Shown here piece after piece: positions 2,083 to 58,179 of a stretch of DNA of 64,000 nucleotides; the first letter of the stretch is position 1, and every line of letters starts with the position of its first letter. The notes under the pieces are model-generated. The model worked only from the letters and a program-made list of their open reading frames with translations. It searched no databases and was not told where the DNA came from. Position numbers and translations under genes: made by a program. Origin of the DNA: an uncultured Dehalococcoidia bacterium (lineage in GTDB: Bacteria; Chloroflexota; Dehalococcoidia; Bin125). The DNA is taken from the NCBI GenBank assembly GCA_964347635.1, contig CAYFZI010000002.1:8851-72850 (forward strand). Reading direction: 5' to 3'.

Positions 2083-3045
2083 GTGCCCGCGCCCTTCACC
2101 GCCGCCGCCGTGCAATGGGCCCCGGGGCTGACACTGCGCGGCAGCGTGGAGCGCGCGCGCGCCGCGATCGGCGAAGCGGCTGCGGCCGGCGCGGCGCTGA
2201 TCGTCTTCCCCGAGACCTGGATCCCGATGTATCCCTATTTCCACTCGCGGTCGGCCGACCGCGCCTCCTTCGCCCGCCTCTACGAGCACCATTTCGAGCA
2301 CAGCATGGTCATCGGCGGTCCGGAGTGGACAGCGCTGACAGAAGCCGCGCGCGAGGCGCAAGCCGCGGTGGTGATCGGGATCAATGAGCGCGAGGCCGCC
2401 GGCGGCACGCTCTACAACACGCTCGCCTACATCGGCGCCGACGGCGCGCTGCTCGGCAGGCACCGCAAGCTTGTTCCGACGCTGTCTGAGCGCCTCATCT
2501 GGGGCTACGGCGACGGCTCCGACCTCGATGTCTACGAGACGCCGCATGGACGCTTGGGCGGCTTGATTTGCTACGAACACCACATGGCCCCGGCCCGCTA
2601 CGCGCTGGCCGGGCTCGGCATCCAGGTTCATGCCTCGGTCTGGCCGGGCTGGGAGATGCTGCACGGCATCGTGGACGCCGCGACGCGCCAGCTCGCCTAT
2701 GAAAACGCCTGCTTCGTGATCGTCGCGCGCGAGGTGATGTCGGCCGAGCGCCTGCCGGCCGGCACGCCGCTGGCCGAGGAGCCGTTCTGGTCGGCCAGCG
2801 GCGGCAGCGCGATCATCGCGCCGGGCGGCAAGTACCTGGCCGGCCCGGCAATCGGCGAGGAGACGATCCTCTACGCGGAGATCGATCCCCGCGCCACGAT
2901 TGAGTCCAAGCGCTGGGTCGACAGCGTCGGCCACTACAGCCGCCCCGATGTGTTTCAGCTGCACTGGAACCGCAGCCCGCGCCGTCCGCTCGTGATCAGC
3001 GCCGAACCCCCGCCGCCGCTTGGCCTGCACCGCGATGCCGAGTGA
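2083..3045 (+). CDS. Carbon-nitrogen hydrolase (nitrilase / cyanide hydratase family)
   Basis: AAVQ...LIVFPETWIP N-terminus, catalytic Cys in GGLICYEHH, and E/K context. GTG 2083 is chosen immediately after the SDR stop at 2078; the track ORF starts inside the SDR. Confidence 0.7.
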   Translation: MPAPFTAAAVQWAPGLTLRGSVERARAAIGEAAAAGAALIVFPETWIPMYPYFHSRSADRASFARLYEHHFEHSMVIGGPEWTALTEAAREAQAAVVIGINEREAAGGTLYNTLAYIGADGALLGRHRKLVPTLSERLIWGYGDGSDLDVYETPHGRLGGLICYEHHMAPARYALAGLGIQVHASVWPGWEMLHGIVDAATRQLAYENACFVIVAREVMSAERLPAGTPLAEEPFWSASGGSAIIAPGGKYLAGPAIGEETILYAEIDPRATIESKRWVDSVGHYSRPDVFQLHWNRSPRRPLVISAEPPPPLGLHRDAE

Positions 3046-4102
3046 CGCACGCGCGCAGCGCGGCGACGCGATCACCGCGGTGCCCGGCATCAAAGTCGGC
3101 CACTACACCGATCGGCGCCGCGCCACCGGCTGCACGGTGATCCTCTGCGAGCAGGGCGCTGCACCCGGCTTTTTCAACCCCGGCGGCGCGCCCGGTACGA
3201 TCGAGACCGACCTCGCCCGACCCGAAAACGCCGTCCAGCAAGTCCACGCTGTGCTGCTCACCGGCGGCAGCGGTTTCGGACTCGAAGCCGCCACCGGCGT
3301 CCGCCGCCGCCTGCGCGAGCAGAACATCGGCCTCCGCCTGCGGTCCGGCCTCCCCGCCATCCCGCTCGTGCTCGGCGCCGTCGTCTTCGACCTCGGCATC
3401 GGCGAGCCGGCCAACCCCACCGCCGCCAACGGACGCAACGCCGTCGACCGAGCCCGCGCCGACACCGTCCTTCAAGGCTCCGTCGGTGTGGGGACCGGCT
3501 GCACCGTCGCCAAGCTCGGCCCGCCCGGCACCGCCGTCAAAGGCGGCTTCGGCACCGCCGCCGCGCACCATGAATCCTCCGGCCTGATCGTCGGCGCGGC
3601 CGTCGCCGCCAACGCCGTCGGCGGCATCGTCGACCCCGCCGACGGCCGGCTTGTCGCCGGCCCCCGCGCCGGCCCCAACGGCGAGATGCTGCGCAGCAGC
3701 GGGATCATGCGCGCCAAGCTCTACGCTGATTACGTCAGCGAGTTCGCCGCCCAAGCGGCCGCCCAGCCGACTGCCCGGCCGTCCGACCAGCCCGGCGCAA
3801 ACACCACGCTGGCCGTGGTCGCGACCAATGCGCGCCTGCACAAGGGCCAGACGCGCCGCCTCGCGATCATGGCTTCAGCTGGACTGGCGCGCACGATCGA
3901 GGCCGTCTTCAGCCCCGCCGACGGCGATTCGGTCTTCAGCCTCGCCACGGGCGAGATCGACATCTCCGCTGCGTCGCCGCTGCTGACGCTGCTCGGCGTC
4001 ATGGCCGCGGACGCGGCTGCGGAGGCCGCCCTCCGCAGCGTGCGCAGCGCTGCGCCGCTGCACGGCGTCCCCTCAGCAGCCGAGTGCGCACCCAGCGGTT
4101 GA
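3035..4102 (+). CDS. Peptidase S58 (DmpA / L-aminopeptidase D-Ala-esterase) family protein
   Basis: ITAVPGIKVGHYTD...TGCTVIL and LTGGSGFGLEAATGV motifs of the DmpA/ArgJ-like fold. ATG 3035 overlaps the nitrilase 3' end by 11 nt; an alternative TTG start lies at 3020. Confidence 0.65.
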   Translation: MPSDARAQRGDAITAVPGIKVGHYTDRRRATGCTVILCEQGAAPGFFNPGGAPGTIETDLARPENAVQQVHAVLLTGGSGFGLEAATGVRRRLREQNIGLRLRSGLPAIPLVLGAVVFDLGIGEPANPTAANGRNAVDRARADTVLQGSVGVGTGCTVAKLGPPGTAVKGGFGTAAAHHESSGLIVGAAVAANAVGGIVDPADGRLVAGPRAGPNGEMLRSSGIMRAKLYADYVSEFAAQAAAQPTARPSDQPGANTTLAVVATNARLHKGQTRRLAIMASAGLARTIEAVFSPADGDSVFSLATGEIDISAASPLLTLLGVMAADAAAEAALRSVRSAAPLHGVPSAAECAPSG

Positions 4103-7231: not shown

Positions 7232-9349
7232 GTGCCTGACCGATTCGAACTCACCGCCGACTATCAGCCGACCGGCGACCAGCCGCATGCGATCCGCGAG
7301 CTGGTCAGCGGCCTGCAGACCGGCCAGCGGGCGCAGACGCTGCTGGGCGTGACGGGCTCCGGCAAGACGTTCACGATGGCCAACGTGATCGCCGAGCTGC
7401 ACCGCCCGACTCTGGTGCTCGCACACAACAAAACCCTCGCCGCCCAGCTCTGCACCGAATTCCGCGACTTCTTCCCCAACAACGCCGTCGAGTACTTCGT
7501 CTCCTACTACGACTACTACCAGCCCGAGGCCTACATCCCCCGCTCCGACACCTACATCGCCAAGGAATCCGACATCAACGACGAGATCGACAAGCTGCGC
7601 CACGCTGCGACGCGCGCGCTCTTCGAGCGCCGCGATGTGGTGATCGTCGCCTCAGTCTCCTGCATCTACGGCCTCGGCGAGCCGGAGGACTATCAGGGCA
7701 TGGTGCTGACGCTCGAAAAGGGTAAGCACGCGGCGCGCAACCTGGTCCTGCGGCGCTTGATCGACCAGCAGTATGAGCGCGACGAGCTGACGCTGCAGCG
7801 CGGCCGCTTCCGCATCCGCGGCGACACCCTGACAATCCAGCCCTCCTACGAAGACCTCGCCGTTCGGGTTGAGTTCTGGAACGATGAGGTTGAGCGGATC
7901 GTCGAGCTGGACCCGCTGACGGGCGAGATTCTCGCCGACCGCGAGCGCGTCGATGTCTATCCCGCCAAACACTTCGTGACCACCGATGAGCGCATGGCCG
8001 CGGCTGTCGCGGACATCGAGGCGGAGCTGCAGCAGCAGCTCGAGCTGCTGCGCGGCGAGGACCGTATCCTCGAAGCCGCGCGGCTCGAGGAACGGACCAA
8101 GTACGACCTCGAAACGCTGCGCGAGACTGGCTACTGCGCGGGCATCGAGAACTACTCGCGGCACCTCGCCCGCCGCGCCGCCGGCAGCACGCCTTGGACG
8201 CTGCTCGACTACTTCCCCGAAGACTGGCTGCTGTTCATCGACGAGAGCCACATGACGCTGCCGCAGGTGCGCGGCATGTACGGCGGCGACACGCGGCGCA
8301 AGCAAACCTTGGTCGACTTCGGCTTCCGCCTGCCCTCCGCGATCGACAACCGGCCGCTCAACATCGACGAGTTCGAGCGCCACATCAACCAAGTCGTCTT
8401 CGTCTCCGCCACCCCCGCCGATTACGAGCGCAACCACTCGGAGCAGATTGTCGAGCAGCTGATTCGACCCACCGGGCTGCTCGATCCTGAGGTTGAGGTG
8501 CGCGGCACCGACGGCCAGATCGACGACCTAGTCTCCGAAATTCGCGCCCGCGCCGAACGCGGCGAGCGCACCCTCGTGACCACCCTGACCAAGAAGATGT
8601 CCGAAGACCTCGCCGACTACCTGCGCGAAGTGGGGATTAAGACCTACTATCTGCACAGCGAGCAGGACGCGTTTCAGCGCGTCGAAGTGCTGCGCGACCT
8701 GCGCCTCGGCGTCTTCGACTGCGTCGTGGGCATCAATCTGCTCCGCGAGGGGCTCGATCTGCCGGAAGTGAGCTTGGTCGCCGTGCTCGACGCCGATAAG
8801 GAAGGCTTCCTGCGCAACGAGAGCACGATGGTGCAGACGATCGGCCGCGCCGCGCGCCACATCAACGCCCACGCGATCCTCTACGCCGATCGGATCACCG
8901 ATTCGATGCGCCTGGCGATCGACGAAACGCACCGCCGCCGCGCCGTGCAGGCCGAATACAACCAGCGCCATAACATCGCCCCGGCCTCGATCAGCAAGGA
9001 AATCCGCGATATCACCGACCAAATCATCACCGATCAGGCCAGCGACCTCCGCGAGGTCGCCGAAGACGCGCCCCACTATGCGGCGGCGGAAAGCGGCGCG
9101 CCGCTCCCGACCGACGCCAGCCCCGATCAGATCGCGCGTCTGATCAAAGAGCTCGAAGGGCGTATGAAGCAGGCTTCGCGCGATCTGGAATTCGAAAAGG
9201 CCGCCGTGCTGCGCGACCAGATCGTCGAGCTGCGCCGCGGCCTCGCCGGCGATCCCGAGCAGCTCGAGCCGTGGGTCGACCAGGCCTACGGACGGCGCCG
9301 GCGTCCGCGCCGCCGCCGCGAACCGGCCGGCACCGCGCGCGGCGGCTGA
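7232..9349 (+). CDS. uvrB: Excinuclease ABC subunit B (UvrB)
   Basis: GVTGSGKTF Walker A, helicase motifs, beta-hairpin region, and the C-terminal UVR domain ([30 protein letters not shown]). Confidence 0.95.
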
Positions 9350-9604
9350 TTCCAGCGCCGTTTTGACGCCCTCTCCATAATGTTGATACTGTCGCCTTGA
9401 CGCGCGCACGGGCGGTTGGGAGACCGCGCGGCAGGGCGAGGCACGCCCCCTGCAGATAAGCGGCGTGCAGGTGAGCAGAGCGTCCACTGTGCGCGTTGTG
9501 CGCGCTGAACCCGCTCACCCGCCGCATCTACTTGGCGGGTGAGCCCGCGCTGAGGCGGGTCCCGCCCGCAGGCCCCGCCGCTTGGGCGCCCGGGAGGTGC
9601 AACG

Positions 9605-10429
9605 GTGGTGTTGGAGCCCGTCCCCGAGCGCCGGCCGGCCAGCACGGCGCGATTGGCCGGCGACGCTCCCCCATCCTGGCTGGGCGGTGAGGCGCGGGGC
9701 GGCGACGGCCGCCGCTGCGCGTTCTGCGGCGAGCTGGCGCCGCCCGCCTCCTCCTTCTGCCCCAAGTGCGGCCGCGCTCTCACCGCCGCCCTGCTGCCCG
9801 CACACGGCGAAGCGCTCTCGGTGGTCTTCACCGATATCGAAGATTCAACCCAGCTGACCGAGCGCTTGGGCGACGCGACCTGGGAAGCGATTATCGATGA
9901 ACATAACGACATCGTCCGCGAGGAGCTGCACCGCCACCGCGGCTTCGAAGTGAAGCTGACCGGCGACGGCTTCCTGATCGTCTTCGCCGACGCGCTCAAC
10001 GCTGTGCGCTGCGCCTCCCGAATTCAGGCCCGCGTCACCCTGCGCGCCGCGCACCGCGGGGCCGGCTGGCCGGTCCGCGTGCGGATCGGCATCCACCGCG
10101 GCGATGTGATCCTCCGCCCTGGCGGCGACATTCTCGGCCGCACCGTGAACATGGCCAGCCGCATCCTGGCCAAGGGCGACGGCGGGATGATCCTCAGCTC
10201 CGCCGCCTTCGCTGCAGAGGTGGCAGCCGCGGTGCCGGACGAGTTCTGGATCGATATGGGCGCGCGCCGCATCCGCGGCATCGCGCGCCGCGAGCGGCTC
10301 TACCGGCTCAACTGGGCCGGCTACCTGCGCGCCCAGGCCAGCATCGAGGACCCCGGCCCCGAAGCGATGCGCTTCGACGGCGATGAAGCCTTCGATCCAT
10401 TTGACCCGCTCCTCAGCGCCGTTGGCTAG
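9605..10429 (+). CDS. Class III adenylate/guanylate cyclase with an N-terminal C4 zinc-ribbon
   Basis: CAFCG...CPKCG ribbon, then a CYTH-unrelated class III cyclase core (VVFTDIEDST...GDGFLIVF...RIGIHRGDV). GTG start is preceded by GGGAGG at 7 nt. Confidence 0.7.
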   Translation: MVLEPVPERRPASTARLAGDAPPSWLGGEARGGDGRRCAFCGELAPPASSFCPKCGRALTAALLPAHGEALSVVFTDIEDSTQLTERLGDATWEAIIDEHNDIVREELHRHRGFEVKLTGDGFLIVFADALNAVRCASRIQARVTLRAAHRGAGWPVRVRIGIHRGDVILRPGGDILGRTVNMASRILAKGDGGMILSSAAFAAEVAAAVPDEFWIDMGARRIRGIARRERLYRLNWAGYLRAQASIEDPGPEAMRFDGDEAFDPFDPLLSAVG

Positions 10430-42624: not shown

Positions 42625-42870
42625 CCCCGTTCGGCGGCGGCGGCGGTTCTCCCCCGCGCGCGGGCGCCCGCCCCGCCCACTCGTGCAGATGCACAGCCTG
42701 AACACTTGTGCTATGTTGGCCGCGAATATGGCCGACCGCACGAACCGATCCCCAGCAGCGCTGACCGCCCCGCGGATCTGCCCGGCCGCCGTCGCTGCGT
42801 ACCCGCTTCGAGTGTCGCTGGGGAGACATGCGCGCCGCCGCCGCCCGCAGGCGCCGTTAGGATTGCGCCG

Positions 42871-43926
42871 ATGGCGTTGAATCCCAACCTTGCTCCCGGC
42901 ATCCCGACGGCGCTGGTCCGCGCGGCCGGCCAGCACGCCGCTGAGCCGGAACTCGCGATCCGCGCCGACAACCTGACCAAGCACTTCGGCGAAATTCACG
43001 CTGTCAACGGCATCCGTCTGCGCGTGCCCGTCGGGCAGGTCTTCGGCTTTCTCGGCCAGAACGGCTCCGGCAAGTCGACCACCGTGCGGATGCTGACGAC
43101 GCTGCTGAAGCCGACAGCCGGGGACGCGCTGGTCGCCGGCCTCGATGTCCGCCGCGAGCCGCGCCAGGTGCGCCAGGCGATCGGCGTCGCGCTGCAGGAA
43201 GCGGGGCTCGACCTGCTCCAGACTGGCCGCGAGCTGCTGCGCCTCTCGGCGCGGCTCTACAACGTGCCCCGCGCCGACATCGAAGCGCGGATCGCCTACC
43301 TGCTCGATGTCGTGGACCTCGCCGGCGACGCCGAGCGCCGCATCGGCGAATACTCTGGCGGGATGCAGCGCCGCCTCGACCTCGCCGCCGCGCTGGTCCA
43401 CAGCCCCCGCCTGATCTTCCTCGACGAACCTACCACCGGCCTGGACCCGGTCAGCCGCCAAAACCTCTGGGAATACATCGAGCGGCTCAACCGCGAGGAC
43501 GGCGTGACCTTCTTCCTGACCACGCAGTACCTCGAAGAGGCCGACCAGCTCTGCGACGAGATCGCGATCCTCGACGCCGGTCTGATCGTCGCTCAGGGCT
43601 CGCCCAAGGCGCTCAAGGACACGGTCTCCGATGATGTGATCTCGTTCGAGGTGAACGGCCGCGGCGAGGGGCGGCGGGCGATCGACGCCGTCGCCGGGCT
43701 GCCGATGGTCGACAATGTCCGCAGCGACGGCGAGATCGGCGTCGCCATCTACACCAAGAGCGGGACCGCTGTCTTTCCAACCGTCGTGCGGGCGTTGGAC
43801 AACGCCGGCCTGGCCTTCGACAACCTGCGGCTCGCGCACGCGACGCTCGACGACGTCTTCTTCCAGGCGACCGGCCACCGTATGGAGCCGCCGAGCACGG
43901 CCGACGGCGCGGAAGGCGGGTCCTGA
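42871..43926 (+). CDS. ABC transporter ATP-binding protein (ABC-2 exporter type)
   Basis: GFLGQNGSGKSTT Walker A, LSGGMQRRLDLAAAL signature, LIFLDEPTTGLD Walker B and a C-terminal extension. The start is ATG 42871; the longer track ORF is not credible. Confidence 0.85.
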   Translation: MALNPNLAPGIPTALVRAAGQHAAEPELAIRADNLTKHFGEIHAVNGIRLRVPVGQVFGFLGQNGSGKSTTVRMLTTLLKPTAGDALVAGLDVRREPRQVRQAIGVALQEAGLDLLQTGRELLRLSARLYNVPRADIEARIAYLLDVVDLAGDAERRIGEYSGGMQRRLDLAAALVHSPRLIFLDEPTTGLDPVSRQNLWEYIERLNREDGVTFFLTTQYLEEADQLCDEIAILDAGLIVAQGSPKALKDTVSDDVISFEVNGRGEGRRAIDAVAGLPMVDNVRSDGEIGVAIYTKSGTAVFPTVVRALDNAGLAFDNLRLAHATLDDVFFQATGHRMEPPSTADGAEGGS

Positions 43927-44831
43927 TGGCGGCCGCCCCCGCGGTCGGCGAGCGCGGCGCAGCCGCCGGCGCCGCGGCGCGCAGCGGGGCCTTCCATGTC
44001 CTCTCCCACTCCCGATTTCTGGCCGCGCGCACGATTCGTGAGTCGCTGCGCCAGCCCGGCGTCGAAATCACCAACGTCTTTATCCCGCTCTTCTTCCTCG
44101 CCGTCTCCACCGCCGCGATCGGCGAGGTCGCCGGGATCGCCTTCAGCGTCGATAACTACCTCGGCTTCCAGCTCCCCGTCGCCGTGCTACAGGCGGTCGC
44201 CGGCTCCTCCAGCGCCTCCGGGATCGCGATCGTCACCGATATGGAACGCGGCTACTTCGACAAGCTGCTGCTCACGCCGGCCTCGCGTTGGTCGCTGATT
44301 ATCGGGCGCGTCGCCGCCGATGCCGTGCGCGCCGTCTTCTTCAGCGCGATCATGCTGATCGCCGCATTGATCTTCGGCTCCGGCATGGTCGCCGGCGTCG
44401 GCGGGGTGCTTGTGATCCTGATCATGGCCGGCATGTTCGGCGCCGCCTACTCCGGGATCGGCATCTTCGTCGCCATGCGCACCGGCAACGCCCAGGCCGC
44501 GCAGGCCAGCTTCCTGCTCTTCTTCCCCTTGCTCTTCATGGCCCCGGCCTTTGCCCCCAAAGAGATCTTCGCCGATTGGCTGCAATGGATCGCCACGATC
44601 AATCCAGTGACCTACATGATGGAGGGCATCCGCGAGCTGGTCCTCGGCAATTACGGCGCTGCGGCCATGGTGGAAGCCGGCGGCGGAAGCCAGCAGGCCG
44701 TCGCCGCCGCGCTCGGCAACGGCTGGGATGCGGAGCGGCTGCTCTGGGCGTTTGTCTCGCTGGCCGGCTTCGGGGCCGTGACGCTCACGATGGCTGTCTT
44801 CGCCCTGCGCCGCCGCGCCGGCTCCGGCTGA
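43926..44831 (+). CDS. ABC-2 type transporter permease
   Basis: Six predicted TM segments. ATG overlaps the ATPase stop (ATGA). Confidence 0.8.
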   Translation: MAAAPAVGERGAAAGAAARSGAFHVLSHSRFLAARTIRESLRQPGVEITNVFIPLFFLAVSTAAIGEVAGIAFSVDNYLGFQLPVAVLQAVAGSSSASGIAIVTDMERGYFDKLLLTPASRWSLIIGRVAADAVRAVFFSAIMLIAALIFGSGMVAGVGGVLVILIMAGMFGAAYSGIGIFVAMRTGNAQAAQASFLLFFPLLFMAPAFAPKEIFADWLQWIATINPVTYMMEGIRELVLGNYGAAAMVEAGGGSQQAVAAALGNGWDAERLLWAFVSLAGFGAVTLTMAVFALRRRAGSG

Positions 44832-52007: not shown

Positions 52008-52050
52008 GAGCTAGGCGGACGTAGGCTGGCGGCAGTGGGGGGACCCTGCC

Positions 52051-53271
52051 ATGCGCCTGTCGTCGCTGCGGATCAAGAACTACGGCTGCCTCGCCGATTT
52101 CGAGCTGAAAGACATCCCGCCCCTCGCCGTCTTCATAGGCGCCAACGGTAGCGGCAAGAGCACGCTGTTCGATGTGTTCGCCTTTCTGCGCGATTGTCTG
52201 CGGAATGATGTCACTAGCGCCGTTGACCGCCGCGGCGGGTACGAGGAGCTGCACACGCGCGAGACGGAAGGCCCGATCGAGCTCGATCTGACCGCCCAAA
52301 CCGACCATTTCGACGATCTGCGGATCCTGCGGTATCAGCTGGCGATTACTGCACAGAACGGCCGCCCGGTGATCCAGGCAGAGCGGCTCGAAGAGCAGAT
52401 TGGCGCTAACGGACAACCCGTCGCCAGGCTCGATCCCGATGACGAACTGGGCGCGAACTCCGATGCGCAGAGTGGCGATGATGAAGCGGGCGGCCTTTGG
52501 CAACAAGTTGTTCAGGAAGAGCGCCGCCGCGGCCGACTAGCACTTTCGTCGCCGTTCGCGCTGCGCCCTGCAGCGGGAGACGGCGCACCGACCTTCGAAT
52601 CCTACTTCGCCGCACGGCTGTTTCATGACATGTTCACCGAACTACATCTTTCCAATGTGCATATCGACGCAGCGCGCCAGCCGCCCCAGTTCGGGCGCGC
52701 GGCCCATCTGGCCGACGACGGCGCAAACGTCGCACTGGTGACGAAATACATGAGCGAAGAACATGATCAGGTGTTTACCGAAGTGATCGCGCGCATGCAG
52801 CGGGCCGTCCCCGGTCTGGACCGGATCGACGTGAAGCGGACCGACGATGCGCGCATCGTGCTGCGCTTCTCCGACCGCTCCTTCCAAGACCCGTTCTTAG
52901 CGCGCTCCGTCTCCGACGGCACCGTGAAATTACTTGCGTATCTGCTCTTGCTGTACGACCCGGATCCGCCTCCGCTGCTCTGCATCGAGGAGCCCGAGAA
53001 TCAGCTGTATCCGTTGCTGCTGGAAGAGCTGACGGAAGAGCTGCGGATGTTCGCACACCGCAGTGGCGGTCAGGCGCTGGTGTCGACTCACTCTCCGAAT
53101 TTGCTCAATACCGCCGAACCGCAGGAAGTGTTTTGGCTATTGAAAGAGGCCGGGCGCACGTTCGTGCGGCGAGTGAGCGACGACGAACAGCTCGTCGCCC
53201 AGCACGACTTCGGCGACCACCTGGGGCGCATGTGGCAATCCAACGCATTTGCGGGCGCGCACCCCGAGTGA
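52051..53271 (+). CDS. AAA_21-type ABC/SMC-like ATPase (OLD/AbiEii-like ATPase family)
   Basis: MRLSSLRIKNYGCLADFELKD...VFIGANGSGKSTLFDVFAFL (Walker A), SDGTVKLLAYLLLL (signature-like), LLCIEEPENQLYP (Walker B/D-loop) and VSTHSP (H-loop). GC content is visibly lower than in the flanking genes. Confidence 0.8.
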   Translation: MRLSSLRIKNYGCLADFELKDIPPLAVFIGANGSGKSTLFDVFAFLRDCLRNDVTSAVDRRGGYEELHTRETEGPIELDLTAQTDHFDDLRILRYQLAITAQNGRPVIQAERLEEQIGANGQPVARLDPDDELGANSDAQSGDDEAGGLWQQVVQEERRRGRLALSSPFALRPAAGDGAPTFESYFAARLFHDMFTELHLSNVHIDAARQPPQFGRAAHLADDGANVALVTKYMSEEHDQVFTEVIARMQRAVPGLDRIDVKRTDDARIVLRFSDRSFQDPFLARSVSDGTVKLLAYLLLLYDPDPPPLLCIEEPENQLYPLLLEELTEELRMFAHRSGGQALVSTHSPNLLNTAEPQEVFWLLKEAGRTFVRRVSDDEQLVAQHDFGDHLGRMWQSNAFAGAHPE

Positions 53272-53837
53272 ACTCGACGCTTGTCATTGTGGTTGAAGAG
53301 CGCTCGAAACAGCATTTCCTGGAAGCGTTTCTGCGCACCTGGCGGTTAGACCCTGCGCCCGACATCAAGTTTTTCGTCGCCAATGGGCATTCCGATTTGA
53401 CACGTCAGCTTTACACCTTGATGCGTGCGTGGCGGAAACCGCGTACGCGGTTTCTCGTGCTGTGTGATCAAGACAGTGCAGACTGCGTTGAGAGGAAGCA
53501 GGAGCTGATCGCACAAGTTCCCTGTTCACGCCGCAACGATGTCACCGTCCGCATCGTATGCACCGAACTCGAAGGTTGGTACCTTGCCGACAGAACGGCG
53601 CTCAGGGAAGCGTTGCCCCAATTTCCCCAACGCGCGCCGCCTCCGCCGGAGTTACGCGGCCCGCCTGACAGCATTCAGCGTCCAGCCAGCCGGATTAGGC
53701 GCTATGCGCCGTTCAGCAAGCGCGACCTCGCGCGCGAAATGGGGCGACGAATGTTGCCCAATCGTGGCAGCGCGTCATCGAGCTTCAATCTCTTCATCCG
53801 CACGCTTGACGAACTCTTTCAGCGCAGCGCGGATTGA
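53268..53837 (+). CDS. DUF4276-like small protein with a Toprim-like acidic motif set; partner of the upstream ATPase
   Basis: GTG overlaps the ATPase stop (GTGA). LVIVVEERSKQHF (conserved Glu), FLVLCDQDSADC (DxD) and CTELEGWYLAD. It is 189 aa long, with the lowest local GC in the window. Confidence 0.55.
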   Translation: MNSTLVIVVEERSKQHFLEAFLRTWRLDPAPDIKFFVANGHSDLTRQLYTLMRAWRKPRTRFLVLCDQDSADCVERKQELIAQVPCSRRNDVTVRIVCTELEGWYLADRTALREALPQFPQRAPPPPELRGPPDSIQRPASRIRRYAPFSKRDLAREMGRRMLPNRGSASSSFNLFIRTLDELFQRSAD

Positions 53838-53865
53838 CCCGTCCCCGCGGCGCCGTTAGCCTACT

Positions 53866-54045
53866 CGCAGAATCAGAGTGGGGCGCACGACGGGGAACCC
53901 GGTGCGAATCCGGGGCTGTCGCGCAACGGTGATCCGCAGCTCGCTGCGGTCAGCCCGAATACCGTCGGGGCGCCCACGCCAGCACACCGACTTCGCGTCA
54001 GGGTCGGGGCGTCCCCAAACGGCCCATCGAGGCCGTTTTCGCTGC
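53866..54045 (+). promoter_or_regulatory. Cobalamin (AdoCbl) riboswitch with a terminator-like expression platform
   Basis: AGAATCAGAGTGGG...GGGAACCCGGTGCGAATCCGGGGCTGTCGCGCAACGGTGA matches the conserved cobalamin-riboswitch core (GGGAA..GGTG.AA.TCC...CTG.C.CGCAAC.GT). A B12-box-like GTCAGGGTCGGGG and a hairpin aacggcc-catcga-ggccgtttt (54019-54045) lie upstream of a btuF-like gene. Confidence 0.7.
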
Positions 54046-54083: not shown

Positions 54084-55403
54084 GTGCACCTCAAGCTCAT
54101 ACTCCCGCTGGTCGCCGCCGCCCTCCTGCTCCTCGCCGCCTGCACAGATCAGTCCCAGCAGTCTCCCCCGCCCGCCGCCGAGCCTGAGGCGCAAGCGGAG
54201 TCGGCCCAGCCCCAGCAGGCGTCGGCGCCCGTTGAGGAGTCTGAGGCGCAGGCAGAGTCAGCTCAGCCCCAGCAGGCGTCGGCGCCCGCTGAGGAGTCTG
54301 AGGCGCAGGCGGAGTTGGCCAGGATCTCGATCCGCGACGCCGTTAACTTCAGCGTCGGTTACCAGGGCGCGGCGAAAATCGTCCACGTCGTCGAGGCTGC
54401 GCCCGGCGCCGGCGGCGCGGTCTACATCCTTGTGCAGCGCGGCGCCGCCGAGCCGTCCGGCGGCTGGGCCGGCCTGGCCGCCGAGCTGCTCGCCGCGCAC
54501 GATCTCGGCGAGCCCACGGTGATCGAAGTGCCGCTGCAGTCGATCTTCGCCTCATCGACCACGCAGCTGCCCGCGCTCGAAATCCTCGGCGTGCTTGACC
54601 GCCTCACAGGCGTCGCCCAGTCCGGCCTCGTGAGCAGCGAAGCGGTGCGCGCCCTGATCGACGCCGGCGGGCTTGTCGAGTTTGCCCCGATGTTCAGCGT
54701 CGACGCCGAAATCGTGCTCGCCGCCCGGCCCGATGTGCTGATGACCTCAGGCTTCTGGGACGACGCCTATGAAGTCATCCAGGGCGCCGATACGGCGATT
54801 GTCCACAACAGCGACTGGGTTGAGAGCAGCCCGCTCGGCCGCGCCGAATGGGTCAAGTTCATCAGCCTCTTCTTCAACCGCGAGGCGCAGGCGGAAGCCT
54901 GGTACGAACAGATGCGTGCCGACTACCTCGCTGTCCGCGATCTGGCCGCCGCCGCCGCGCCGCGGCCGAGCGTCCACACCGGCCTGGTCTGGGGCGATGT
55001 CTGGCTGGCGGCCGGCGGCGGCTCCTATGTGGCGCGGCTGCTCGCCGACGCGGGCGCCGACTATGTCTGGGCGGACGATGCATCCGTCGGATCGCTCGAG
55101 CACGATATCGAGACGCAGCTCGCCCAAGCCGGCGGGGCCGACTTCTGGCTGCACTCGGCGCAGTGGTGGACGAGCGCCGCCGACGCGATCGCCGAAGATG
55201 CGCGCTACGGCGAGTTCGCCGCGCTGGACCGCGGCAACCTCTGGAATCCGAGCCGCCGGATCAACGCTTCGGGCGCCAACGATTTCTATGAACAGGGCGC
55301 GCTGCGCCCCGATCTGGTGCTGGCCGACCTGGTCGCGATCTTCCATCCCCAGCTCATGCCCGATCATCAGTTTGTCTTCTATCGGCGCGTCGGCGGCGAG
55401 TGA
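54084..55403 (+). CDS. ABC transporter substrate-binding lipoprotein, cobalamin/siderophore (BtuF/FecB, PF01497-like) type
   Basis: Lipoprotein signal LAACTDQ, a low-complexity repeat linker, then a periplasmic-binding-protein class III pattern. A B12 riboswitch sits upstream and a FecCD permease downstream. GTG start follows GAAAGG. Confidence 0.8.
   Translation: MHLKLILPLVAAALLLLAACTDQSQQSPPPAAEPEAQAESAQPQQASAPVEESEAQAESAQPQQASAPAEESEAQAELARISIRDAVNFSVGYQGAAKIVHVVEAAPGAGGAVYILVQRGAAEPSGGWAGLAAELLAAHDLGEPTVIEVPLQSIFASSTTQLPALEILGVLDRLTGVAQSGLVSSEAVRALIDAGGLVEFAPMFSVDAEIVLAARPDVLMTSGFWDDAYEVIQGADTAIVHNSDWVESSPLGRAEWVKFISLFFNREAQAEAWYEQMRADYLAVRDLAAAAAPRPSVHTGLVWGDVWLAAGGGSYVARLLADAGADYVWADDASVGSLEHDIETQLAQAGGADFWLHSAQWWTSAADAIAEDARYGEFAALDRGNLWNPSRRINASGANDFYEQGALRPDLVLADLVAIFHPQLMPDHQFVFYRRVGGE
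54178..54318 (+). repeat. Tandem 63-bp repeat (about 2.2 copies) encoding AQAESAQPQQASAP(V/A)EESE within the SBP linker
   Basis: The period is seen directly, 54181 to 54244 to 54307, with a few substitutions. Confidence 0.6.
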
Positions 55404-56527
55404 GCGCGCTTGAGGGCCTACAGGCAGCCGCTCCAGAGCGGTCCGCCGAGCTGGACGCGCTGGGCGCTGTGCGCGCCCGCACGATCGCCGTTTTTGCCGC
55501 TCTGATCCTCGCCGCGCTCGTGCTCGCGCTGCTCGGCGTGGCCGTCGGCTCGATCTCGATCCCATTCCCCGCCGCGCTCGACGCGCTGGGCGCAGTCTTC
55601 AGCGGCTCGGCCGGCGCGGCCTCGGGCGACGAGGCCGTTTGGGCCGCGATCGTGCAGCAGATTCGCATCCCGCGCACGCTCACGGCGCTGCTGGCCGGCG
55701 CTGCGCTGGGCATCGCCGGCCTGCAAATGCAGACGCTCTTCCGCAATCCGCTCGCCGACCCCTTCGTGCTCGGCATCAGCGCCGGCGCCTCGTTCGGCGT
55801 GGCCGCCGTGGTGCTGGTCGCGGGCACCGGCGTGACCGTCTTCACCGCTGGGCTCGGCTGGCTCGGCGATCTCGGCCTGGCCGGCGCCGCGGTGGCCGGC
55901 GCGGCCGCCGTGATGGCCTTGGTGCTCGCGCTCTCGCTGCGCGTGCGCAGCATCGTCACCGTGCTGATCGTCGGGCTGCTTGTCGGCCAGCTGGTCGGAG
56001 CGCTGATCACGATCCTGATCTCCGCCGCCCAAGAGCAATACGTGGACCAATTCGTGCGCTGGGGTTTCGGTTCGTTCCGCGGCGTGACCTGGTCCGAGCT
56101 GCGCATCCTCGCCCCCGCCGTCGCCGCGGGGATCGCCGTCGCGCTGCTCAGCGTCAAACAGCTCAACGTGCTGCTGTTGGGCGAGTCCTACGCGCGCAGC
56201 CTCGGCGTCCACGTGCGCCGCGCGCAGCTGGCCGCAATGCTTGGTGCGGCCCTGCTGGCCGGCGCGGTCACCGCCTTCGCCGGGCCGATCGCATTCCTCG
56301 GCGTGGCCGTCCCGCACCTCGCCCGCGGACTCTTCCGCACCTCCGACCACCGCATCCTCGCCCCCGCGGTGATCCTCTGCGGCGCCGTGATCGCGCTCGC
56401 CGCCGAAATCGCCGCCCAGCTGCCCGGCCTCAGCAGCGTGCTGCCGCTGAACGCCGTCACCGCCCTGATCGGCGCACCCGTCGTGCTTAGCGTGCTGCTC
56501 CGCCGCCGCCGCCTCAGCGCCGTATGA
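55400..56527 (+). CDS. FecCD-family ABC permease (BtuC-like)
   Basis: Ten-TM hydrophobic protein with FecCD motifs (IRIPRTLTALLAGAALG..., GPIAFLGVAVPHLAR). It overlaps the SBP stop. Confidence 0.85.
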   Translation: MSALEGLQAAAPERSAELDALGAVRARTIAVFAALILAALVLALLGVAVGSISIPFPAALDALGAVFSGSAGAASGDEAVWAAIVQQIRIPRTLTALLAGAALGIAGLQMQTLFRNPLADPFVLGISAGASFGVAAVVLVAGTGVTVFTAGLGWLGDLGLAGAAVAGAAAVMALVLALSLRVRSIVTVLIVGLLVGQLVGALITILISAAQEQYVDQFVRWGFGSFRGVTWSELRILAPAVAAGIAVALLSVKQLNVLLLGESYARSLGVHVRRAQLAAMLGAALLAGAVTAFAGPIAFLGVAVPHLARGLFRTSDHRILAPAVILCGAVIALAAEIAAQLPGLSSVLPLNAVTALIGAPVVLSVLLRRRRLSAV

Positions 56528-56643: not shown

Positions 56644-58179
56644 CTACCCGCTCGTTGGCCCCGACCGCGGTGCGATCGCGCGCAGGAACAGCACCGCGCT
56701 GATGAGCAAGATCGCCCCGGCGGCGGCGACCACCGCATACTCCCAGGGGAAGCTGCGCGGCGAAGCGAAGCTGGGGGCTGCGCGTCGCGTCGATTGCCGC
56801 TGCTCGATCTCTGCTGTGCGCGCCGCGATCTCGCCGCTGCTGCGCGTGTCCAGCGCCGCTGCTTGCCCGCCCTCCGGTTCGGCCTGCGGTTCGATCTCGC
56901 CCGCGTCCTCGGCACGCTCGGCTTCGCGCTCGGCCTGCTCTCTGCTGGGCGTCTGCTCCGCCGCTTCTTGCTCCTGCTCCGCCTCGGCCGCCGGTTCCTC
57001 CTGCTCGGCGACCTCCGGCCCCGCGATCACCTCGTCCTCGATCACCGTCGAGCGGTCTGCGCCGCGTTCGCGCGGCGGCAGGCCGACCGACGCCCGCCAG
57101 GCGTTGTCGAGGCCGTCGCGGTCGAAGCCGTAGACCGTCGTCAGCGCGTTATCGACAGTCGAGCCCGCCTTGAAGGTGGCAAAGAGCGCAGCGAACTGCT
57201 GCGGTCCGTAGGTGCCGATCAGGTAGGTGACGATCGACGCCGCCTGGCCGTAGAACACGTCGACCTGGCCGGCGATGTTGGTGTTCGAGGCCATTCCGCG
57301 CACGGGCAGCACCGTGTCGCGCTCGATCGCGCGCTGCAGCGCGCCGCCGCGCCGCGCCAGCCAGTCGCCCTCGGCCAGCGTTGCGACGCCTTCATCGAGC
57401 CAGGCCGGCAACGTGCCGAACGCGCCCTCGCCGGCGATCTTGGTCAGCACGTGAGTCAGCTCGTGGCGAATCACCCAGCGGCTGGGGTCGTAGATGTGGA
57501 CCAAATCCGCGAGCACGCGCACCCCGCCGGTGATGACCTGCTCATCGAAGCCCTCGCTGCGAATCCGCTGTACGCCGGACGCATCCGACTCGCTGCGCCA
57601 GACATAGACCTTGAGCGGAAAGTCGACCTCGATGCCCAGCAGCGCCGCCATCGCGGCCACCGCGTCCGCCCCCTCTTCGGCCATCGCGATCGCTGCTCCC
57701 TCGTCGTGGTAATACCGCACCATGATCCGGCCGCGCTCGATCTCAATCCACTCGTAGCGCGGGTCTTCGTAGCGCCAGATCCGCGCCGCGGTCTTCGTCA
57801 CGCTGCCGTCGGTTGCCGTCAGCTGCCAATACCAGCGGATATCCGCCCCGACCGGGATGTAGAAATCGGCTCCTCGAGTGGCCAGGTCGGCGGAGATGCG
57901 CGCCACACCGCCGCTCTGGAGCTCCGCCGGCTGCCGCGTCAACGCGCCTTCCGGCAGCACCGTGTAGAAGAACACCGCCTCGGCGAGCTGCGCCCCGTCT
58001 GAGACCAGCGCGGTGAACGAGACGGAGTCCGGAAACTGCTCCATCCGGATCGACGTGTCCTGCACCTGCGGGGTCGATTGCCCGCGCACTGCGCCGAGGC
58101 CGGCAAACAGCGCGGTCAACAACAGCAGCGCGGCCAACAGCAGCGCGGCAAACCCGCTGTGCGCCTGCACGGCCTTCAT
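56644..58179 (-). CDS. Secreted/membrane-anchored zinc metallopeptidase-like protein (HExxH)
   Basis: N-terminal signal/TM, IRHELTHVL HExxH motif, acidic Glu/Ala-rich linker and a C-terminal TM anchor. The stop overlaps the prfB start region (ATGA-type overlap at 58176-58179). Confidence 0.55.
   Translation of the reverse strand: MKAVQAHSGFAALLLAALLLLTALFAGLGAVRGQSTPQVQDTSIRMEQFPDSVSFTALVSDGAQLAEAVFFYTVLPEGALTRQPAELQSGGVARISADLATRGADFYIPVGADIRWYWQLTATDGSVTKTAARIWRYEDPRYEWIEIERGRIMVRYYHDEGAAIAMAEEGADAVAAMAALLGIEVDFPLKVYVWRSESDASGVQRIRSEGFDEQVITGGVRVLADLVHIYDPSRWVIRHELTHVLTKIAGEGAFGTLPAWLDEGVATLAEGDWLARRGGALQRAIERDTVLPVRGMASNTNIAGQVDVFYGQAASIVTYLIGTYGPQQFAALFATFKAGSTVDNALTTVYGFDRDGLDNAWRASVGLPPRERGADRSTVIEDEVIAGPEVAEQEEPAAEAEQEQEAAEQTPSREQAEREAERAEDAGEIEPQAEPEGGQAAALDTRSSGEIAARTAEIEQRQSTRRAAPSFASPRSFPWEYAVVAAAGAILLISAVLFLRAIAPRSGPTSG

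Follow-up and report, generated by a model that had tools for sequence, protein, structure and literature searches.

In the OLD enzymes of classes 1 to 3, as the sources available to us describe them, an ATP-binding cassette (ABC) ATPase forms the N-terminal part and a Toprim domain the C-terminal part of a single polypeptide. These enzymes were first described as DNA exo- and endonucleases, and AriB and P2 OLD are now reported to be tRNases. In P2 OLD, destabilisation of the tetramer is reported to open the Toprim site and tRNA is cleaved; in Thermus OLD, a domain inserted in the ABC ATPase is reported to mediate dimerisation. In PARIS, the ATPase AriA senses Ocr and releases the Toprim tRNase AriB, and the trigger-facing pores of AriA are described as poorly conserved (PMC11464382); the same paper counts MADS3-4 and AbiL among the ABC-ATPase plus Toprim systems. 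Published work places DUF4276 in the Toprim superfamily and connects it with Mad4 of MADS and NsnC of Menshen (PMC12065111). HEC-01 ('Hma-embedded candidate 01') pairs an ABC ATPase with a TOPRIM protein; its discoverers described the folds as ABC and not AAA+, and HEC-01B as sharing the metal site of BpOLD (Payne et al., bioRxiv 10.1101/2024.01.29.577857). In other surveys, as far as their accounts go, HEC-01 is still listed as an unvalidated candidate. Here we analyse a pair of overlapping genes, A and B, at positions 52051 to 53837 of a 64-kb sequence (the window; all positions without a locus label refer to this full stretch) from an uncultivated Dehalococcoidia group, and compare it with these systems and with the same chromosomal site in related genomes.

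The pair consists of the following elements:

52051..53271, + strand: gene A, OLD/SMC-type ABC ATPase, ATPase component of HEC-01, 406 amino acids (aa), open reading frame with an ATG start
53268..53837, + strand: gene B, stand-alone DUF4276 protein and predicted OLD-type Toprim nuclease, HEC-01 partner, 189 aa
53268..53271, + strand: GTGA, start codon of B over stop codon of A, putative translational coupling, from the sequence and the conserved overlap

Both open reading frames and their overlap had been reported in a preliminary description of the window, made from the letters alone, and we found them at these same coordinates. The frame of B ends at 53837, and its GTG at 53268 overlaps the TGA of A by 4 nucleotides (nt) on the same strand. 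That B starts at this GTG is supported by an identical 189-aa protein in a public database (P0001), by the alignment of its homologues, which begins at residue 1, and by conservation of the overlap: an RTGA or TGATG junction was present in all eight syntenic loci examined, and the gene calls of A and B overlap or abut in loci L030 to L034. A and B are a real, translationally coupled two-gene unit.

Both proteins matched PADLOC models of HEC-01 over their full length. A aligned with PDLC04144 at an expectation value (E) of 1.2e-119, residues 1-406 covering profile positions 1-395 of 395, and with PDLC04182 at 1.8e-109. B aligned with PDLC04143 at 9.1e-33, residues 4-186 on profile positions 3-186 of 190, and with PDLC04202 at 1e-21. 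The pair is thus a member of HEC-01, a catalogued candidate type, and not a new kind of system; the preliminary reading as a split OLD/PARIS-like defence pair agrees with these matches. In PADLOC the ATPase model PDLC04144 is labelled HEC-01B and the DUF4276 model PDLC04143 is labelled HEC-01A, the reverse of the other HEC-01 models, so that the A and B names in its output can mislead for this subtype. Distant homologue pairs also keep the DUF4276 partner.

Protein A is one of the OLD/SMC-like ABC ATPases rather than a subunit of a transporter. It matched Pfam AAA_21 (PF13304) with 122.4 bits (cutoff 27) and AAA_15 with 71 bits, and matches to RecF/Rad50/SMC-type families were weak. Beyond HEC-01, the PADLOC models of named systems matched it far more weakly, the best being AriA (1e-33), AbiLi (8e-23), mad3 (1e-17), GajA (2e-16) and NsnB (3e-16). 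An AlphaFold2 model built with 87 homologues had a mean predicted local distance difference test score (pLDDT) of 85.8 and a predicted template modelling score of 0.86, with low confidence around residues 120-180 and a pLDDT below 50 for residues 125-143. In a Foldseek search with this model, the nearest solved structures were PtuA (Septu and retron-associated), SMC heads, Rad50 and Thermus OLD, with E of 1e-11 to 1e-13. Together with the AAA_21 score, this bears out the earlier assignment of A as an SMC/RecF-like ABC ATPase. No LSGGQ-type signature was found in open reading frames of at least 180 codons across the whole window, nor in A by motif scan. The sequence elements of A are:

52138..52164, + strand: Walker A / P-loop, G30-A-N-G-S-G-K36-S-T; G30, N32, G33, G35 and K36 invariant in the 87-sequence and syntenic alignments
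52276..52635, + strand: hypervariable insert, residues 76-195, a beta-sheet extension, low-confidence loop and two helices, from the identity profile, indels and AlphaFold2 model
52912..52998, + strand: signature-like VSDGT (287-291; S288, D289, G290) to Walker B LLCIE313 and catalytic E314-P-E (309-316), invariant in the 87-sequence alignment
53089..53091, + strand: H-loop H347 (STHSP), invariant in the syntenic-allele and 87-sequence alignments

Protein B is a Toprim protein of the OLD type whose acidic site, made of two clusters, is intact, and it is predicted to be a nuclease. The DUF4276 domain proposed earlier was recovered by Pfam (PF14103, 37.4 bits, cutoff 30.2). A search of the B profile against sequences in the PDB gave nothing meaningful (best E 0.66), so its relationship to solved structures needed a fold search; there the best matches were OLD nuclease regions, followed by AriB and GajA. 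In the AlphaFold2 model, strands 4-9, 32-37, 60-67 and 92-97 with helices between them follow the Toprim order beta1-alpha1-beta2-alpha2-beta3-alpha3-beta4. The predicted active site comprises:

53295..53300, + strand: Toprim glutamates E10-E11 after beta1 (VVEERS, 8-13); E10 present in 125 of 137 family representatives, 10 of the 12 remaining being gaps
53466..53474, + strand: Toprim DxD, D67-Q-D69, after beta3 (LCDQDSAD, 65-72); D67 in 137 of 137, D69 in 134 of 137
53565..53573, + strand: second acidic cluster, E100-L-E102, after beta4, candidate second-metal site; E100 in 123 of 137, E102 in 137 of 137

Every motif named in the preliminary description could be located, GANGSGKST, LLCIEEPE and STHSP in A and VVEERS and LCDQDSAD in B. 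Among the 137 B-family representatives, conservation was 91% for E10, 100% for D67, 98% for D69, 90% for E100, 100% for E102, 97% for K77 and 96% for D134. Two cysteines, C73 (53484-53486) and C98 (53559-53561), were conserved in 99% and 97% of them; they lie outside the canonical Toprim motifs and may therefore form a structural disulfide or a metal site. B of the window carries each of these residues, and C66 is additionally conserved within its clade. The features of OLD-type Toprim domains, a conserved glutamate, the DxD and further acidic residues, are thus all found in B. With the B profile, a search of 1.84 billion cluster representatives yielded 1,076 relatives (E <= 1e-3), of which 584 reached E <= 1e-10. 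Most of the 150 best are 170-215 aa long, a length from which we take them to be free-standing proteins as well.

What the pair looks like in related genomes was followed with the upstream MaoC-like protein as query; loci are given by L numbers. In the window, a coenzyme A (CoA)-transferase III gene and a weakly MaoC-like gene (MaoC_dehydratas, 22.3 bits against a Pfam cutoff of 27) lie upstream of the pair; downstream follow a cobalamin riboswitch (53893-53988; Rfam, 35.5 bits, cutoff 31.5), a Peripla_BP_2 gene (btuF) and a FecCD gene. The neighbours named earlier, a MaoC dehydratase and a B12 riboswitch with transporter, are therefore there, the former as a sub-cutoff match. We saw no repeat, integrase or tRNA boundary beside the pair, the nearest tRNA being 6.5 kb away. 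The order CoA-transferase, MaoC-like gene, A, B, riboswitch, btuF, FecCD was found in ten relatives (L001, L004, L005, L006, L017, L024, L025, L030, L031 and L032). In L029 and L033/L034, a sub-lineage whose MaoC-like protein is 66% identical to that of the window, the pair also follows the MaoC-like gene, with other genes downstream. Over the relatives with conserved position, the MaoC-like proteins are 66-84% identical to that of the window. The same site in ten relatives, together with the MaoC-adjacent pair in three more loci, rules out a recent single insertion.

The pair is also dispensable, since it was lost in L002 and B is truncated in L029. In L002, the MaoC-like gene, riboswitch, btuF and FecCD are kept and A and B are absent, with about 40 nt from the MaoC stop to the btuF promoter (8814-8855). 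In L029 (3773-4036), A is intact and B is cut right after the DxD, at a rearrangement that inverts btuF and FecCD. L003 and the more distant loci in the range L007 to L018 are without the pair as well (L017 in this range being listed among the carriers). We considered L002 as a site that was never occupied; this is less likely than a deletion, as its three closest relatives, with flanking DNA about 91-96% identical, carry the pair. The short motif 'GCGGATTGACC' kept in L002 was first taken for a remnant of B; the conserved -35 box of the btuF promoter accounts for it better, so that the L002 sequence by itself does not prove deletion. An empty site between the MaoC-like gene and btuF, which had been proposed as a check on horizontal acquisition, thus exists in L002, whereas the ten syntenic relatives are occupied at the same site. 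We conclude that the pair is a long-term, dispensable resident of one chromosomal slot.

Despite this fixed position, the pair is of atypical composition. With a guanine-plus-cytosine (GC) content of 0.613, the segment 52051-53837 lies below all 623 sliding 1.8-kb windows (100-nt steps; mean 0.691, standard deviation 0.029), so the GC contrast pointed out before holds when computed over the whole window. GC at third codon positions is 0.75 in A and 0.67 in B, against 0.86-0.90 in eight neighbouring genes, and in every genome the GC of the pair is below that of its flanks. Eight pairs of genomes share 95-98% identity in their four flanking proteins but only 50-62% in A and 41-85% in B. The closest alleles are at 73% for A (L006 and L032) and at 85% for B (L017 and L024). 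At the nucleotide level, about 97% identity gives way to 40-60% some 200 nt into A and is regained close to the end of B or shortly after its stop. L017 and L024 are 97-100% identical in one block, made up of the last part of A and 400 nt at the start of B; elsewhere A stays at 40-60%, and B is at about 70% towards its end, a pattern that indicates a recombination mosaic. Over 55 locus pairs, the divergence of A and of B followed that of the flanks weakly (Mantel r 0.33, p 0.015, and r 0.27, p 0.03, respectively), and the divergence of A was uncorrelated with that of B (r 0.05, p 0.34).

Neither divergence by point mutation in place nor a diversity-generating retroelement is supported: nucleotide divergence is 40-60%, with large indels and sharp breakpoints, and no reverse-transcriptase family occurs among the Pfam-annotated genes of the loci with gene calls, although no search aimed at a retroelement was made. 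The best reading of these data is that the locus is under diversifying recombination, in which divergent alleles replace it time and again by homologous recombination and A and B reassort independently, as expected under diversifying or frequency-dependent selection by viruses. The horizontal acquisition suggested in the preliminary description has to be qualified accordingly. A recent one-off insertion does not stand, as the pair is syntenic in relatives, nearly to the extent that the description itself had named as refuting it; the atypical composition and the exchange of alleles among genomes at a fixed site do stand, and make the horizontal exchange one of allele replacement.

The divergence within A is unevenly distributed, as the following mean pairwise identities among 11 syntenic alleles illustrate:

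A residues 1-60 (P-loop): 0.66-0.91
A residues 76-195 (insert): 0.09-0.32
A residues 286-315 (signature, Walker B): 0.68-0.74

In the broad family, represented by the 86 other members of the 87-sequence alignment, residues 76-195 are at 0.32-0.69. Large indels lie in the insert (the A alleles are 382 to 429 aa long), which is also where the AlphaFold2 model has low confidence. B is variable throughout save around the catalytic motifs. Every aligned allele of B has its catalytic residues unchanged; those of A are conserved except in L005, where the catalytic glutamate of Walker B is replaced by glutamine. Such a glutamate-to-glutamine exchange is the classic change that permits ATP binding and impairs hydrolysis. 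The L005 allele (8851-10044) reads LLCLDQPE instead of LLCIEEPE at this place, and L004 reads LLLLDEPG. Ten syntenic A alleles are mutual nearest relatives, and A of the window is about equally distant (45-50%) from the syntenic alleles and from generic family members of other phyla. In a search of 5.8 billion protein clusters, its closest known relative was the L029 allele, at 49-50% identity, and a 319-aa fragment was identical to A over 79% of A's length. B has relatives at 65-67% identity. Much of the natural allele pool of A has yet to be sampled.

We favour, with some confidence, a defence system of the general logic of HEC-01, in which a 'split OLD' pair acts as sensor and effector. By analogy with PARIS and P2 OLD, A would oligomerise through its inserted domain and keep B inactive. 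The hypervariable insert, which we propose as sensor or oligomerisation region on the same grounds, may recognise a phage-derived protein or nucleic-acid structure. Binding or hydrolysis of ATP at the conserved head of A would then free or open B, which might cut nucleic acid, either DNA or, as for AriB and P2 OLD, tRNA, at the metal site made of E10, D67xD69 and E100xE102. This cleavage would stop the infection, probably at a cost to the cell. The fold of B is closest to OLD enzymes first described as DNA nucleases, whereas AriB and P2 OLD are reported tRNases; any specific substrate or stoichiometry would be a doubtful choice.

On a more tentative footing, the locus may be seen as a polymorphic immune-receptor slot, following a logic like that of the allelic series of plant or animal nucleotide-binding leucine-rich repeat receptors (NLR): an open-ended series of HEC-01 alleles would pass through it, with the insert as virus-recognition surface and A and B reassorting freely. 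Homologous recombination would have as its anchors the conserved 5' end of A on one side and, on the other, the btuF promoter at the stop of B. We found no mention of such a hypervariable allele series at a fixed locus in the HEC-01 literature available to us.

Several observations weigh against the defence reading. The pair is set among metabolic and transport genes, in neither a defence island nor a mobile element, and its long conservation beside a metabolic operon would also fit a cellular role other than defence. No relatives of B were found in a scan of viral contigs. Since the nearest solved folds of A are PtuA and SMC heads and not AriA, a PARIS-like architecture is not established; the A-B complex, the sensing of a trigger by the insert and the nuclease substrate are drawn from analogy, and antiphage function in this organism is what we infer. 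The archaeal OLD-family ATPase Cran1 is reported to act in cell-cycle progression and apparently not in antiviral defence. As to HEC-01 itself, the system chosen by its discoverers did not protect Escherichia coli (bioRxiv 10.1101/2024.01.29.577857). With a HEC-01 system from a cold seep, E. coli B was protected from one or more of the phages T4, T5 and T7, in a report that is sparse in detail, annotates only AAA_21 and, in its available text, has no mutants (bioRxiv 10.1101/2024.09.26.614923). The experimental evidence on HEC-01 is thus contradictory. The preliminary description held that the combination of AAA_21 with DUF4276 has no defined function; this is correct for the mechanism, but the pairing is catalogued and has been tested against phages twice, once with a negative and once with a positive result.

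Among other explanations, an addiction module resembling a toxin-antitoxin pair, in which a toxic nuclease B is checked by A, loss kills the cell and defence is absent or incidental, appears unlikely to us. Two coupled genes for a nuclease and a regulator, a low GC that persists in every genome and a place among housekeeping genes would be in keeping with it, and AriA was termed 'AriA antitoxin' by its PDB depositors. However, the loss of both genes in L002 and of B with A kept in L029 were tolerated, hypervariability focused on the insert and independent reassortment of A and B are not predicted, and most of the known ABC-ATPase plus Toprim pairs are, in the accounts available to us, defence systems.

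It is quite improbable that the pair does housekeeping work in this lineage as an OLD/RecF-type factor of DNA maintenance or the cell cycle, after the example of Cran1. The non-defence precedent of Cran1 itself, the conserved position beside the MaoC-like gene, a probable shared transcript with the CoA-transferase/MaoC operon in loci whose spacer measures about 10 nt and the weak RecF/Rad50/SMC-type matches of A speak for it. Yet a difference of 40-60% between genomes with 95-98% identical flanks is unlike housekeeping genes, the pair is absent in L002, L003 and the L007 to L018 range (carrier L017 apart) with B truncated in L029, and the composition is atypical in every genome.

It is very improbable that the pair is an inactive relic, a formerly mobile defence pair in decay and of no present function. 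Decay does occur in relatives, with the deletion in L002 and the truncated B of L029, and the Walker-B exchange in L005 could be counted with them, but in the window both frames are of full length with all catalytic and nucleotide-binding motifs intact and the overlap preserved, and other metagenome assemblies yield an identical B and the fragment identical to most of A.

The last alternative, that A is the missing BtuD-like ATPase of the cobalamin transporter, has in its favour that btuF-btuC (54084-56527) is without an adjoining ATPase gene, FecCD (55400-56527) being followed by a convergent Peptidase_MA_2 gene (56644-58179, - strand), but is effectively refuted by scores (ABC_tran 19.8 bits against a cutoff of 25 and over the P-loop only, where a genuine exporter ATPase in the window reaches 94 bits, and NCBIfam BtuD 13.2 bits against a cutoff of 281), by the PtuA, SMC, Rad50 and OLD folds nearest to A, by its position upstream of the riboswitch and its promoter, which puts A outside the btuF transcription unit, and by L002, which retains riboswitch, btuF and btuC without A. 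The transporter-type ATPase that the preliminary description had named as the case against its own assignment was therefore not what we found.

The boundaries of the cassette could be narrowed down by alignment of the loci:

52008..52050, + strand: spacer between the MaoC-like gene and A, 5' boundary, with TAGGCT (52022-52027) and a G-rich ribosome-binding stretch (52037-52043), 13-locus alignment
53834..53862, + strand: promoter-like element, TTGACC (53834-53839, including the TGA of B), 17-nt spacer, TAGCCT (53857-53862), 12-locus alignment

TTGA (53834-53837) and TAG..T (53857-53862) are invariant in 12 of 12 loci, including L002 without A and B, and the start of the riboswitch follows. We read this element, from its sequence, as the putative -35 and -10 boxes of the riboswitch/btuF promoter. 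A btuF promoter situated at the stop of B would explain the fixed 3' end of the cassette. A consensus promoter scan returned no promoters; it missed this element because the -10 box matches the consensus at 3 of 6 positions. The terminator scan gave one hairpin, inside B (53422-53449), against 2.2 expected in shuffled sequence, and as this is fewer than expected we take it as a chance occurrence. At the 5' side, the spacer between the MaoC-like gene and A varies from about 10 to about 75 nt over 13 loci, with TAnnCT in most and a purine-rich ribosome-binding stretch; a promoter role of this motif may be suspected. In L025, L029 and L034 hardly any spacer is left, and there, as in any locus with about 10 nt, A is probably co-transcribed with the MaoC-like gene.

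Some further observations concern the surroundings of the pair. After FecCD, several relatives carry two to four tandem copies of a gene for a Uma2 protein (PF05685, restriction-endonuclease-like) of 208-213 aa, regularly spaced by about 50 nt:

L025, 9176-10481: Uma2 array
L030, 8346-10573: Uma2 array
L031, 8178-9483: Uma2 array
L032, 8180-10164: Uma2 array
L033/L034, about 2578-3231: Uma2 array

The window has no Uma2 gene, and its FecCD lies directly beside the peptidase gene. A distant HEC-01 pair with an A protein 46% identical to that of the window was found in Cyclonatronum proteinivorum (CP027806.1; L026, 8001-13156). There, the pair is followed by a second AAA_15 ATPase with a 168-aa gene, a dCMP/MafB19-type deaminase and an NTase_sub_bind / NTP_transf_2 pair, surroundings that look like a defence island, unlike those in the window. 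In the part of the gene that encodes the N-terminal linker of the BtuF-like lipoprotein there is a 57-nt tandem repeat (54169-54320; 2.7 copies, 85% matches; as peptide, ...AESAQPQQASAP.EESEAQ...). Its copy number may vary, to judge by an indel of about 200 nt that separates L005 from L006 at the corresponding position. The genuine exporter that served as internal control for the transporter scores is an ABC-2 type at 42706-44831, an ABC_tran ATPase (42706-43926, 94 bits) followed by an ABC2_membrane permease.

Taken alone, the pair is an ordinary match to a catalogued candidate defence type, and the added value lies in the comparative data from outside the window. They indicate that HEC-01 can persist for long at one housekeeping site instead of in mobile islands, and that near-identical genomes hold deeply different, mosaic alleles in which variation is focused in the ATPase insert and the catalytic residues are fixed. 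The variability of the insert points to the part of A that probably reads the virus, and natural chimeras for testing this are supplied by the lineage itself. If the view of the locus as an immune-receptor slot is true, the natural alleles of near-isogenic genomes would be a ready-made map of trigger specificity for HEC-01, in a lineage that is uncultivated, environmentally widespread and poorly known in its virus-host biology.

How the pair compares with the described systems can be stated in some detail. With regard to PARIS (OLD class 4), B is a DUF4276 protein of 189 aa, whereas AriB is a DUF4435 protein of about 300 aa; none of the AriB models in PADLOC matched B at E <= 0.1, and its only Pfam match is DUF4276. 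A has 406 aa against 464 aa for the AriA chains, and its fold is nearer to PtuA and SMC heads than to AriA. The PADLOC models of AriA matched A with E of 1.1e-33 and 3.1e-21, far more weakly than those of HEC-01, and they align at nearly the coordinates at which Pfam AAA_21 and AAA_15 do (304 and about 373 profile positions). In a phmmer search of A against the AriA chains, E was 2e-3 and residues 266-353 only were aligned. The OLD enzymes of class 1 (P2 Old, Thermus OLD) and class 2 (GajA, Burkholderia OLD) differ in that in the window the domains are split over two overlapping genes, by a stop codon and a frame shift. According to the gene annotations of the window, no GajB-like helicase, reverse transcriptase or noncoding RNA is near the pair, and the Gabija partner gene is also absent beside the pair in the syntenic loci.

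MADS shares with the pair an AAA_21-type ATPase, Mad3, and a DUF4276 homologue, Mad4. The best NCBIfam match of A is indeed MAD3 (NF047739), with 132.6 bits, and the PADLOC mad3 model gave the E of 1e-17 mentioned above; the MAD3 score is, however, far under the cutoff of 420 bits, B matched mad4 only at 0.013, and no methyltransferase or other mad gene is in the neighbourhood of the pair. Menshen likewise couples a DUF4276 effector of the Toprim superfamily to an ABC ATPase, NsnB, which A matched with E 2.6e-16. It differs in being made of three genes with DUF4276 as the C-terminal domain of NsnC, whereas B of the window is free-standing and genes like NsnA or NsnC are not present. With HEC-01, by contrast, the pair has in common an ABC ATPase and a DUF4276/TOPRIM protein encoded side by side on the same strand. 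It differs from HEC-01 as first described in lying outside Hma or other defence systems, an embedding that was the criterion of discovery and is not part of the definition by hidden Markov models, and in an A protein that is 49-50% identical to its nearest database relative.

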